Assembly: GCF_030013595.1 (NCBI RefSeq)
Contig: NZ_CP122768.1
Direction: 5' to 3' (one strand)
Length of the DNA: 64,000 nucleotides
DNA from: Escherichia coli
GTDB lineage: Bacteria; Pseudomonadota; Gammaproteobacteria; Enterobacterales; Enterobacteriaceae
Numbering within the stretch: the first letter of the stretch is position 1; every line of letters starts with the position of its first letter. The notes beneath the pieces were generated by a model. The model was not told the DNA's origin. It made no database searches and saw only the letters and a program-made list of their open reading frames with translations. Positions 58,051-60,532 of the stretch are shown piece after piece. The position numbers were made by a program, and so were the translations under genes.

Positions 58051-59190
58051 TTATTGTCCTGCGAGTTGCTGAAGGGCTGTGATGACGCGGTCGGCATCGG
58101 CGGTAGTCATATCCGGGAACAGCGGCAACGAACAGATGCGTTCGCTATTCCATTCGGTATTCGGTAACGACAGCGTGGGAAAACGCTCGCGATAATATTT
58201 TTGTGTGTGAGCGGCGCGGAAATGTAACCCAGTACCAATACCTCTTTCTTTTAACGCTTCCATCAACGCATCGCGACTGATACCACAACGTTGTTCATCG
58301 ACACGAATAATAAACAGATGCCAGGCGTGAACGTGCGGCCAGGCGGGAAGGCTTAATGGCTGAAAAGGGAGAGCTGCCAGTGCTTGTTGATATTGCAGAG
58401 CAATTTCGCGCCGACGGGTGTTGAGGTGCTCTAATTTGGCTAACTGGGTCAGGGCAATCGCGGCGTTAATATCGGTCAGATTATACTTATAGCCCGGCGT
58501 TAAGACTTCAGCTTGCGGTGCACGGCCCCAGGTTTGTCTGTCATAGGCATCGACACCCAGACCGTGAAATTTTAGCATCCGTAGCTGGCGGGCAAGGTTT
58601 TCATTATCTGTAACAATCAGGCCACCTTCCGCACAGGTAATATTTTTGATGGCGTGAAACGAAAAAATAGCGGTACCTTTTGCGCCAATATGTCGGCCTT
58701 TGTAATACGTACCGACGGCATGGGCAGCATCTTCGATAACTGCGATGCCGTAACGTTCGCCAATGGCGCGAATGGCGTCAATATCTGCTGGCGCACCGGC
58801 ATAATGCACCGGAATGATGGCTTTAGTGCGTGGCGTAATGGCTGACTCGATCGCTTCAGGCGTGACCATCAGCGTATCGTGGTCGACATCCACCATTACC
58901 GGCGTTGCACCCAACAAGGAAATCATATTGAGGGTTGAAACCCAGGTCAGGGAAGGCGTAATCACTTCATCGCCCTTGCCAATTTCCAACGCCATTAGCG
59001 TGATATGCATTCCGGCGGTGGCTGAACTGACCGCGATGGCATGCTGATTTCCCGTCAACTGGCAAAAGGCTTGTTCAAGCGCCTGATTCTTCGGACCGGT
59101 TGTGATCCAACCGGATTCGAGAACCTCTTTAACTGCAGCGAGTTCCTCCACGCCCATTGCTGGTCGCGAAAAAGGCAAAAATTCTGACAT
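58051..59190 (-). CDS. arnB: UDP-4-amino-4-deoxy-L-arabinose-oxoglutarate aminotransferase (379 aa from [10 protein letters not shown])
   Basis: ORF 58051..59250 trimmed to the native ATG at 59188-59190; the 20-codon upstream extension lies inside IS10. Confidence 0.93.
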
Positions 59191-59194
59191 TGCT
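59186..59194. repeat. 9-bp target-site duplication, left copy (GACATTGCT); contains the arnB start codon on the minus strand
   Basis: Identical 9-mer immediately flanking both IS10 ends. Confidence 0.95.
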
Positions 59195-59217
59195 CTGATG
59201 AATCCCCTAATGATTTT
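59195..59217. repeat. IS10 outside-end terminal inverted repeat
   Basis: CTGATGAATCCCCTAATGATTTT; imperfect inverse match to the inside end. Confidence 0.9.
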
Positions 59218-59240
59218 GGTAAAAATCATTAAGTTAAGGT

Positions 59241-59309
59241 GGATACACATCTTGTCATATGATCAAATGGTTTCGCGAAAAATCAATAATCAGACAACAA
59301 GATGTGCGA
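59241..59309 (-). ncRNA. IS10 RNA-OUT antisense RNA (about 69 nt, from pOUT), coordinates inferred from the canonical IS10 map
   Basis: In canonical IS10, RNA-OUT starts at element bp 115 and runs toward the outside end, overlapping the 5' end of the transposase mRNA; positions mapped onto the element at 59195. Confidence 0.5.
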
Positions 59310-60510
59310 ACTCGATATTTTACACGACTCTCTTTACCAATTCTGCCCCGAATTACACTTAAAACGACTCAACAGCTTAACGTTGGCTTGCCACGCATTA
59401 CTTGACTGTAAAACTCTCACTCTTACCGAACTTGGCCGTAACCTGCCAACCAAAGCGAGAACAAAACATAACATCAAACGAATCGACCGATTGTTAGGTA
59501 ATCGTCACCTCCACAAAGAGCGACTCGCTGTATACCGTTGGCATGCTAGCTTTATCTGTTCGGGCAATACGATGCCCATTGTACTTGTTGACTGGTCTGA
59601 TATTCGTGAGCAAAAACGACTTATGGTATTGCGAGCTTCAGTCGCACTACACGGTCGTTCTGTTACTCTTTATGAGAAAGCGTTCCCGCTTTCAGAGCAA
59701 TGTTCAAAGAAAGCTCATGACCAATTTCTAGCCGACCTTGCGAGCATTCTACCGAGTAACACCACACCGCTCATTGTCAGTGATGCTGGCTTTAAAGTGC
59801 CATGGTATAAATCCGTTGAGAAGCTGGGTTGGTACTGGTTAAGTCGAGTAAGAGGAAAAGTACAATATGCAGACCTAGGAGCGGAAAACTGGAAACCTAT
59901 CAGCAACTTACATGATATGTCATCTAGTCACTCAAAGACTTTAGGCTATAAGAGGCTGACTAAAAGCAATCCAATCTCATGCCAAATTCTATTGTATAAA
60001 TCTCGCTCTAAAGGCCGAAAAAATCAGCGCTCGACACGGACTCATTGTCACCACCCGTCACCTAAAATCTACTCAGCGTCGGCAAAGGAGCCATGGGTTC
60101 TAGCAACTAACTTACCTGTTGAAATTCGAACACCCAAACAACTTGTTAATATCTATTCGAAGCGAATGCAGATTGAAGAAACCTTCCGAGACTTGAAAAG
60201 TCCTGCCTACGGACTAGGCCTACGCCATAGCCGAACGAGCAGCTCAGAGCGTTTTGATATCATGCTGCTAATCGCCCTGATGCTTCAACTAACATGTTGG
60301 CTTGCGGGCGTTCATGCTCAGAAACAAGGTTGGGACAAGCACTTCCAGGCTAACACAGTCAGAAATCGAAACGTACTCTCAACAGTTCGCTTAGGCATGG
60401 AAGTTTTGCGGCATTCTGGCTACACAATAACAAGGGAAGACTTACTCGTGGCTGCAACCCTACTAGCTCAAAATTTATTCACACATGGTTACGCTTTGGG
60501 GAAATTATGA
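59302..60510 (+). CDS. IS10 transposase (402 aa)
   Basis: ORF 59302..60510; MCELDILHDSLYQFCPELHLKRLNSL... recognised as the Tn10/IS10 transposase; ATG at element bp 108. Confidence 0.97.
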   Translation: MCELDILHDSLYQFCPELHLKRLNSLTLACHALLDCKTLTLTELGRNLPTKARTKHNIKRIDRLLGNRHLHKERLAVYRWHASFICSGNTMPIVLVDWSDIREQKRLMVLRASVALHGRSVTLYEKAFPLSEQCSKKAHDQFLADLASILPSNTTPLIVSDAGFKVPWYKSVEKLGWYWLSRVRGKVQYADLGAENWKPISNLHDMSSSHSKTLGYKRLTKSNPISCQILLYKSRSKGRKNQRSTRTHCHHPSPKIYSASAKEPWVLATNLPVEIRTPKQLVNIYSKRMQIEETFRDLKSPAYGLGLRHSRTSSSERFDIMLLIALMLQLTCWLAGVHAQKQGWDKHFQANTVRNRNVLSTVRLGMEVLRHSGYTITREDLLVAATLLAQNLFTHGYALGKL

Positions 60511-60523
60511 GGGGATCTCTCAG
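60501..60523. repeat. IS10 inside-end terminal inverted repeat
   Basis: Reverse complement reads CTGAGAGATCCCCTCATAATTTC. Confidence 0.9.
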
Positions 60524-60532
60524 GACATTGCT
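60524..60532. repeat. 9-bp target-site duplication, right copy (GACATTGCT)
   Basis: Identical 9-mer immediately flanking both IS10 ends. Confidence 0.95.

Follow-up and report, generated by a model that had tools for sequence, protein, structure and literature searches.

Insertion of IS10 in front of a gene can replace the promoter of that gene with one supplied by the insertion sequence (IS). One of the closest described examples arose in Escherichia coli lacking rpoS, in which IS10 elements with the outward promoter POUT facing otsB were repeatedly selected and gave RpoS-independent expression (Stoebel et al. 2009, PMC2744996). Here we describe a solo IS10 in the 5' leader of arnB, the first gene of the arnBCADTEF operon, in a 64-kb stretch of E. 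coli DNA (contig NZ_CP122768.1; the whole stretch is called the window below). The likeness to the otsBA insertions of that study is close, in that a solo IS10 occupies the 5' leader (at +12/+13 in otsBA), POUT is directed into the operon, and the target is apparently non-optimal. At otsBA dependence on a specific regulator is swapped for constitutive sigma-70 transcription, and the same is predicted for arnB. The two also differ: in otsBA, with the insertion 43 nt ahead of the start codon, the native ribosome-binding site (RBS) remains intact, whereas at arnB the IS parts the Shine-Dalgarno (SD) sequence from the ATG, and the otsBA insertions were recurrent with a measured rise in expression, whereas the arnB case is a single occurrence.

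Two further cases concern drug resistance. IS10 between the cat promoter and its open reading frame (ORF) in pSU8-family vectors was selected by chloramphenicol (PMC4574204), and insertions of IS1 or IS10 ahead of acrEF have been reported from Salmonella DT204 (Olliver 2005, cited in PMC9330008). In these cases IS10 blocks the cognate promoter and gives outward transcription to a resistance determinant, as may also happen at arnB, but both events were drug selected with a measured phenotype, and the IS in cat lies 53 bp upstream of the ORF. A third comparison is E. coli B, in which IS1 mediates tandem amplification of arn (Maybin et al. 2024, PMC11253626). There, as proposed here, an IS changes arn output independently of PmrAB and PhoPQ, but it does so by raising gene dosage through recombination of distant IS1 copies and not by promoter replacement; no arn amplification was seen in the window. 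This amplification was the only link between an IS and arn to emerge from our literature searches, in which neither IS10 nor any other IS was reported upstream of arnB.

Polar Tn10 and IS10 insertions with low-level turn-on of distal genes were reportedly described by Ciampi in 1982 and by Simons in 1983. By analogy with these, the upstream promoter at arnB would be disconnected and residual constitutive expression downstream would come from pOUT; the classical insertions interrupt coding sequence, whereas arnB coding downstream of the RefSeq ATG is preserved. The mechanism at issue, promoter displacement or activation by IS10, is known from otsBA, cat, and acrEF, and the locus is new and medically relevant. 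The products of arnBCADTEF modify lipid A against polymyxin and colistin. Our preferred reading of the allele, held with slightly less than even confidence, is a regulatory rewiring in which inducibility by PmrA/BasR is largely lost, low-to-moderate constitutive arn mRNA is made from pOUT, translation of ArnB is reduced but not abolished, and modification of lipid A with 4-amino-4-deoxy-L-arabinose (Ara4N) is raised at its basal level and lowered at its maximum.

A recent, strain-specific insertion of IS10-Right

In the window, a functional IS10-Right has entered the arnB 5' leader by simple cut-and-paste transposition, an event that is recent and specific to this strain. The element occupies 59195 to 60523 on the plus strand, its length, ends, and ORF having been read both directly and by script, and it has the features that define IS10: 1329 bp with imperfect ends of about 23 bp, a 9-bp duplication, a 402-aa IS4-family DDE transposase, and RNA-OUT overlapping the transposase start. 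The terminal inverted repeats agree at 17 of 23 positions. The outside end (59195 to 59217, plus strand) adjoins arnB and begins CTGATGAATCCCCTAATGA, or CTGATGAATCCCCTAATGATTTTGGTAAAAATCATTAAG in a longer reading, while the inside end (60501 to 60523, minus strand) reads ...GGGGATCTCTCAG up to 60523, includes the GATC site, and faces the displaced arnB control region and ais. Between them the transposase gene (59302 to 60510, plus strand) starts at element nt 108, runs for 402 codons with no stops, and reads away from arnB; its product scores 404 bits with NCBIfam NF033591 (IS4 family), for which the cutoff is 152. At 100% identity, the whole element matches IS10 copies found beside tetD on many resistance plasmids, and the position beside tetD is that of IS10-Right in Tn10. 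These results agree with an earlier note on this DNA, which had called a complete 1329-bp IS10 with both terminal repeats and an intact transposase. A composite Tn10 at arnB was considered and ruled out: because the window contains a single match to the outside end and a single match to the inside end, and hence only one IS10, the element is a solo IS.

The insertion event can be reconstructed from the flanks. The 9-mer GACATTGCT occurs exactly twice in the window, in both cases directly flanking IS10. The left copy (59186 to 59194) holds the arnB ATG (59188 to 59190, minus strand) and the right copy (60524 to 60532) abuts the inside end; the chance that a given 9-mer would recur at the second boundary is about 4e-6. 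When the empty site was rebuilt by joining 59194 to 60533, the resulting 1563-bp query was contiguous in IS-free E. coli: 5403 of 5418 genomes covered at least 80% of it, and two pig isolates from the United Kingdom (UK), HCP5S3_I2 and LCP30S3_I5, matched it at 100%. This alignment to IS-free arn loci confirms the pre-insertion junction. In a BLAST comparison with the closest genome, HCP5S3_I2, both 9-mers landed on one single reference copy, and the whole window was collinear with that genome at 99.90 to 99.97% identity. Because of this collinearity and the single reference copy, the event is a simple transposition with no rearrangement, so that the earlier note was right both about its nature and about an exact duplication whose left copy takes in the arnB ATG.

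Since only three of the six specified positions of the IS10 target consensus NGCTNAGCN agree with the target 9-mer, the arnB site is probably no hotspot; IS10 does use non-consensus sites in nature. We regard an assembly artifact, or a hop of IS10 during laboratory passage of the sequenced culture, as very improbable. The junction is unique to this sequence among the genomes and contigs searched, and IS10 transposes readily in laboratory cultures (PMC4574204), but the exact 9-bp duplication and precise IS ends mark a true transposition as opposed to a misassembly, and the contiguous 64 kb is otherwise collinear with a complete genome. A hop in passage would, moreover, still be a real insertion.

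Displacement of the native arnB control region

The arn operon is physically parted from its native promoter and its translation signals, as in a polar insertion mutation. The arnB gene itself (58051 to 59190, minus strand) is intact, encoding 379 aa by the RefSeq start, and its protein is identical to that of the IS-free relative HCP5S3_I2, in which the RefSeq start is the same ATG as that at 59190 to 59188 of the window. The gap between this ATG and the outside end is four nucleotides long (AGCA), which places the first IS base at position -5, in line with the earlier description of an insertion 5 bp upstream of the arnB start. Before the insertion, the leader read ...GGTATTCAATGGCGGAAGGAAAAGCA-ATG-TCAGAA. 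Its GGAAGGA SD sequence (now at 60535 to 60541, minus strand; spacing of 6 and duplex energy of -5.5 to -5.7 kcal/mol in the rough model described below) and all sequence upstream of it have been shifted 1338 bp from arnB. The arnB promoter contains a direct repeat resembling a PmrA/BasR box, CTTAAGGTTAAGTTAAT, at 60627 to 60643 on the minus strand; the label is a pattern match to the PmrA/BasR box consensus, and the pattern alone is not significant, with eight matches across the window versus 3.3 expected. The distance from this repeat to the arnB ATG has grown from 99 nt to 1437 nt, consistent with the earlier statement that 1.3 kb now separates the operon from its PmrA-dependent promoter.

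The true arnB start is ambiguous, because the reading frame has a second conserved ATG 18 nt before the RefSeq start (60544 to 60546, minus strand), now separated from the gene. Initiation there would yield a 385-aa ArnB that begins MAEGKAMSEF in E. coli and MAEGKMMSDF in Salmonella ArnB (PDB 1MDO/4OCA), both Salmonella structures being of the 385-aa form. Five of ten gene calls at IS-free loci use this start, and RefSeq/PGAP uses the 379-aa one, whose MSEF ATG aligns to residue 7 of the Salmonella protein. E. coli and Salmonella share the upstream ATG as well as the AEGK codons, a conservation that could reflect either coding sequence or an embedded SD. If the 385-aa start is real, IS10 sits inside codons 5 to 8. 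The proposal that the element falls between SD and start codon is consequently correct for the 379-aa RefSeq start and incorrect for the 385-aa one. With either start, the native initiation signals now serve only a stub of 2 or 8 codons: the new ORF ATG-TCC-TGA (60520 to 60528, minus strand) encodes MS*, or MAEGKAMS* from the upstream ATG, and ends in the IS10 inside end.

Beyond this stub, PmrA-driven transcripts face 1.3 kb of antisense IS10 with stops in all frames. No canonical intrinsic terminator was found in a simple scan of the minus strand within IS10, where one weak hairpin followed by U5 lies at about 59616. A C-rich, G-poor candidate Rho-loading stretch spans about 59770 to 59900, with a C/G ratio of 2.3 to 2.8 in 78-nt windows, making Rho-dependent polarity in the antisense IS10 plausible. 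In the rewiring that we favor, transcripts from the PmrA promoter would translate the stub only and then run through 1.3 kb of antisense IS10 that is not translated, where most would probably be lost to Rho-dependent polarity. It is because the stub is followed by untranslated antisense sequence with such a C-rich, G-poor stretch that inducibility by PmrA/BasR is expected to be largely gone.

Predicted outward transcription toward arnB

In place of the native promoter, the outside end directs pOUT at arnB. RNA-OUT, the antisense RNA from pOUT, was located at 59240 to 59309 on the minus strand, starting at IS10 nt 115 and directed toward arnB; the match to Rfam RF00240 scores 98.8 bits, above the gathering score of 41, and covers model positions 1 to 70 of 70. 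Its start lies 119 nt upstream of the arnB ATG. Because a full-length RNA-OUT sits on the arnB strand, pOUT is predicted to read into arnB, which supports the earlier note's reading of the outside end as facing the gene. A simple consensus promoter scan recognized neither pOUT nor pIN, so we relied on the Rfam match and on identity to IS10R. That identity, together with the published mapping of pOUT (Simons et al. 1983, as cited in PMC2744996 and PMC9330008), is why pOUT is taken as intact.

Transcripts from pOUT run into neighboring DNA at about 10% of the level of PlacUV5, according to PMC9330008, which cites Simons 1983. At arnB, folds and a terminator scan revealed no hairpin followed by a U-run between RNA-OUT and the gene. 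Constitutive read-through from pOUT would then provide a low-to-moderate amount of signal-independent arn mRNA with the RNA-OUT stem-loop at its 5' end. A hybrid promoter formed from the IS end and the flank was also considered and rejected, since by eye there is no usable -35/-10 pair and the start would fall within arnB.

On the other side of the element, between 60523 and 60836, the IS10 inside end faces the PmrA-regulated divergent control region shared with ais. Promoter activity has been reported from both IS10 ends (PMC4574204), and for this reason ais, or antisense transcription across arnBp, could be affected as well.

Modeled translation of arnB from the junction leader

The new junction leader reads ...AAUCAUUAGGGGAUUCAUCAGAGCA-AUG, with ...UUAGGGGAUUCAUCAGAGCA-AUG as the stretch nearest the start. 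As the earlier note had it, a poorly spaced G-rich stretch is the only RBS in this leader, whose sequence is as originally read. To compare it with the native leader we used a rough home-made initiation model that combines SD:anti-SD duplex energy, a spacing penalty, and an unfolding cost. Relative to native, modeled initiation at the junction ATG was 0.46-fold, 0.31-fold, and 1.12-fold with 35, 60, and 200 nt of upstream context, respectively. Both leaders came out as weak to moderate, the native SD being better placed (-5.7 kcal/mol, spacing of 6) but its leader more structured. When the folding ensemble included 90 nt of arnB, the mean probability of being unpaired over positions -20 to -5 was 0.22 for the junction versus 0.51 for the native leader, and the junction G-run was almost fully paired.

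This modeling argues against an obligatory loss of ArnB translation; a several-fold reduction would be compatible with it. The suggestion that arnB is translationally crippled therefore draws no support from the crude model, at 0.3 to 1.1 times native, though the long-context ensemble does pair the G-run. It had been offered as one branch of an either/or, the other being constitutive transcription; the two branches are not exclusive, as lost induction and gained basal expression can coexist. In the favored reading, ArnB would be made from the preserved ATG by way of the weaker, poorly spaced G-rich element, in reduced amounts but not abolished.

Other routes to ArnB were weighed and set aside. 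The ORF list includes a 399-aa in-frame extension of ArnB that begins at an ATG at IS10 nt 56, and a further in-frame ATG occurs at nt 35. ArnB fusions from either one are unlikely, as neither ATG has an SD and each is sequestered in the RNA-OUT stem or the terminal hairpin, which would cost 15 to 25 kcal/mol to open in the 60- and 200-nt contexts; in the 35-nt context, where the RNA-OUT stem is truncated, the nt-56 ATG reaches about 0.08-fold native. Farther down the message, the ATG of arnC, 3 nt past the arnB stop, is preceded at 9 nt by an SD of its own, AGGA.

A knock-down or knock-out would be a starker outcome, and we think it possible but doubtful. On this view, loss of the promoter and SD, and perhaps of the true start as well, makes ArnB limiting or absent, and Rho terminates the untranslated arnB RNA so that the whole operon is silenced, leaving a recent allele that is neutral or slightly deleterious. 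The displaced promoter and SD fit such an outcome, as do the low unpaired probability of the junction G-run in long context (0.22 versus 0.51) and the 385-aa start, which if real means that the coding sequence is interrupted. Other natural isolates, described below, tolerate arnB disruption or promoter deletion, and the arn genes show no decay, which fits a very recent event. Against full silencing, the conserved MSEF ATG (the RefSeq start, at Salmonella residue 7) is preserved with an open leader, and activation of adjacent genes by pOUT has been documented.

IS insertions at arnB in the E. coli population

No other occurrence of the allele was found. When the IS with its flanks was compared by megablast with 5426 complete E. 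coli genomes, nowhere did a match span the IS together with both flanks; the 26-mer across the junction had no exact match in metagenome contigs, and no record of the junction-specific 399-aa ORF was found. None of the 24 examined contigs with the identical ArnB allele has IS10 at arnB. The population data show no sign of selection for the IS10 allele.

Of 5415 complete E. coli genomes, 5413 have no break in the 223 bp that run from the arnB 5' end to the PmrA box; the other two carry independent IS events. In NZ_CM136176.1 (strain PRO_A-1370-6W-A_ESBL, from human feces, Tanzania), IS903B lies at about 2277 to 3345 in arnB codons 12 to 15 with the 9-bp duplication TCCACGCCC; this disruptive insertion is about 40 bp from the IS10 site, and RefSeq re-annotates the gene as encoding 374 aa. 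In NZ_CM129885.1 (strain MB06232, from seawater, Galapagos), the right end of an IS1A at about 4102 to 4869 abuts GGAAAAGCA-ATG, 9 nt upstream of the arnB ATG. There ais and nudI are deleted, so that the IS1 is followed by yfaZ, its transposase reads toward arnB, and the arnB promoter is entirely gone. IS hits at the arnB control point thus occur but are rare and non-recurrent, amounting to 2 of 5415 complete genomes plus the IS10 case. These three independent events (IS10, IS1A, and IS903B) at the arnB 5' end of natural isolates identify a control point that is occasionally struck.

A separate arrangement was seen in GCA_030347955.1, which has the identical ArnB allele. At 1285 to 2498 it carries an IS3-family transposase gene (404 aa, rve domains) in the place of ais, about 500 bp upstream of arnB, and no ais gene is called at that place.

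These data bear on a more adaptive interpretation, in which pOUT gives constitutive, PmrA-independent arn expression strong enough to raise Ara4N and lower polymyxin and colistin susceptibility, the allele having been selected, for example, by colistin use in livestock. We judge this unlikely. Its appeal is that pOUT points toward arnB in front of a whole intact operon, that the junction RBS is modeled as not much weaker than native, and that the closest relatives are pig isolates; the target is probably no hotspot, and otsBA shows that poor sites are recovered under selection. A gain of function merits attention also because a 2- to 3-fold increase in arn copies raised the polymyxin B (PMB) minimum inhibitory concentration (MIC) of E. 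coli B about 20-fold (PMC11253626), which is to say that small shifts in arn dosage can cause large shifts in MIC. The allele is nevertheless a single occurrence that does not recur among the 5426 genomes or the metagenome contigs, its orientation is a 50:50 matter of chance, and the native SD has been lost. Read-through at one-tenth of PlacUV5, the figure given in PMC9330008, is modest, and the other IS events at the locus, such as IS903B in arnB, look disruptive as opposed to activating.

Expected phenotype and significance

For the regulatory rewiring that we prefer, the net effect would be basal Ara4N modification above, and maximal modification much below, that of the wild type. Such a strain would behave as a hypomorph under PmrA-inducing conditions, and its polymyxin MIC would rise little, if at all, in standard conditions; a changed polymyxin susceptibility of some kind is plausible. 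Several points weigh against this view. The home-made RBS model is context dependent, and with longer 3' context the junction G-run is almost fully paired, so ArnB translation could be much worse than modeled. PmrA-driven read-through could be substantial, given that Rho termination is deduced from base composition and that the simple scan of the antisense strand showed no canonical intrinsic terminator. By analogy with the dosage effect in E. coli B, even modest constitutive arn expression might outweigh our assumption about its limited consequence.

Surveillance of colistin resistance in E. coli scores mcr genes and mutations in pmrAB, phoPQ, and mgrB, not IS rewiring of the arn promoter. 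That a solo IS10 has turned arn of a livestock-associated E. coli from PmrA inducible to constitutively pOUT driven, and so opened a route to reduced colistin susceptibility or heteroresistance, strikes us as rather improbable. Were it true, this constitutive route would be plasmid independent, two-component independent, previously unreported, and invisible to screens for resistance genes and point mutations. If basal Ara4N is raised, the allele would represent a new chromosomal route to reduced colistin susceptibility; if induction is abolished, it would be a natural hypomorph for weighing the contributions of Ara4N and EptA in wild E. coli. In either case it is a clean natural construct, having an intact operon, a single lesion, and an IS-free relative at least 99.9% identical across the window. 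Because of that construct and its near-isogenic IS-free relative, the question of pOUT versus PmrA is directly testable.

The arn operon and neighboring genes

Downstream of arnB, the genes arnC, arnA, arnD, arnT, arnE, and arnF (51840 to 58047, minus strand) are all intact, making arnBCADTEF (pmrHFIJKLM) seven collinear intact genes; pmrD is intact too. ArnB is a DegT/DnrJ/EryC1-type aminotransferase that aligns to Salmonella ArnB (1MDO) at 711 bits. Across the arn and PmrD proteins the sole difference from HCP5S3_I2 is in ArnF, which has A16 in the window for T16. We considered A16 as a lineage marker, but it failed, being a common, widespread allele listed in 71524 blocks of the sequence collection. 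Upstream, the divergent neighbor ais (pmrG; 60836 to 61438, plus strand) begins 312 nt from the IS10 inside end and keeps the whole intergenic control region.

Over the 64 kb, only about 22 point differences and a reciprocal pair of IS events set the window apart from HCP5S3_I2. The second IS event is an insertion of about 700 bp with an IS200/IS605 tnpA in the gap between nuoN and yfbM (about 39191 to 39197), present in HCP5S3_I2 and absent from the window. At 41229 to 42404 (minus strand), the window has a 391-aa ORF that is the counterpart of elaD, a gene annotated as a frameshifted pseudogene in HCP5S3_I2; the usual length of the elaD product is 403 aa.

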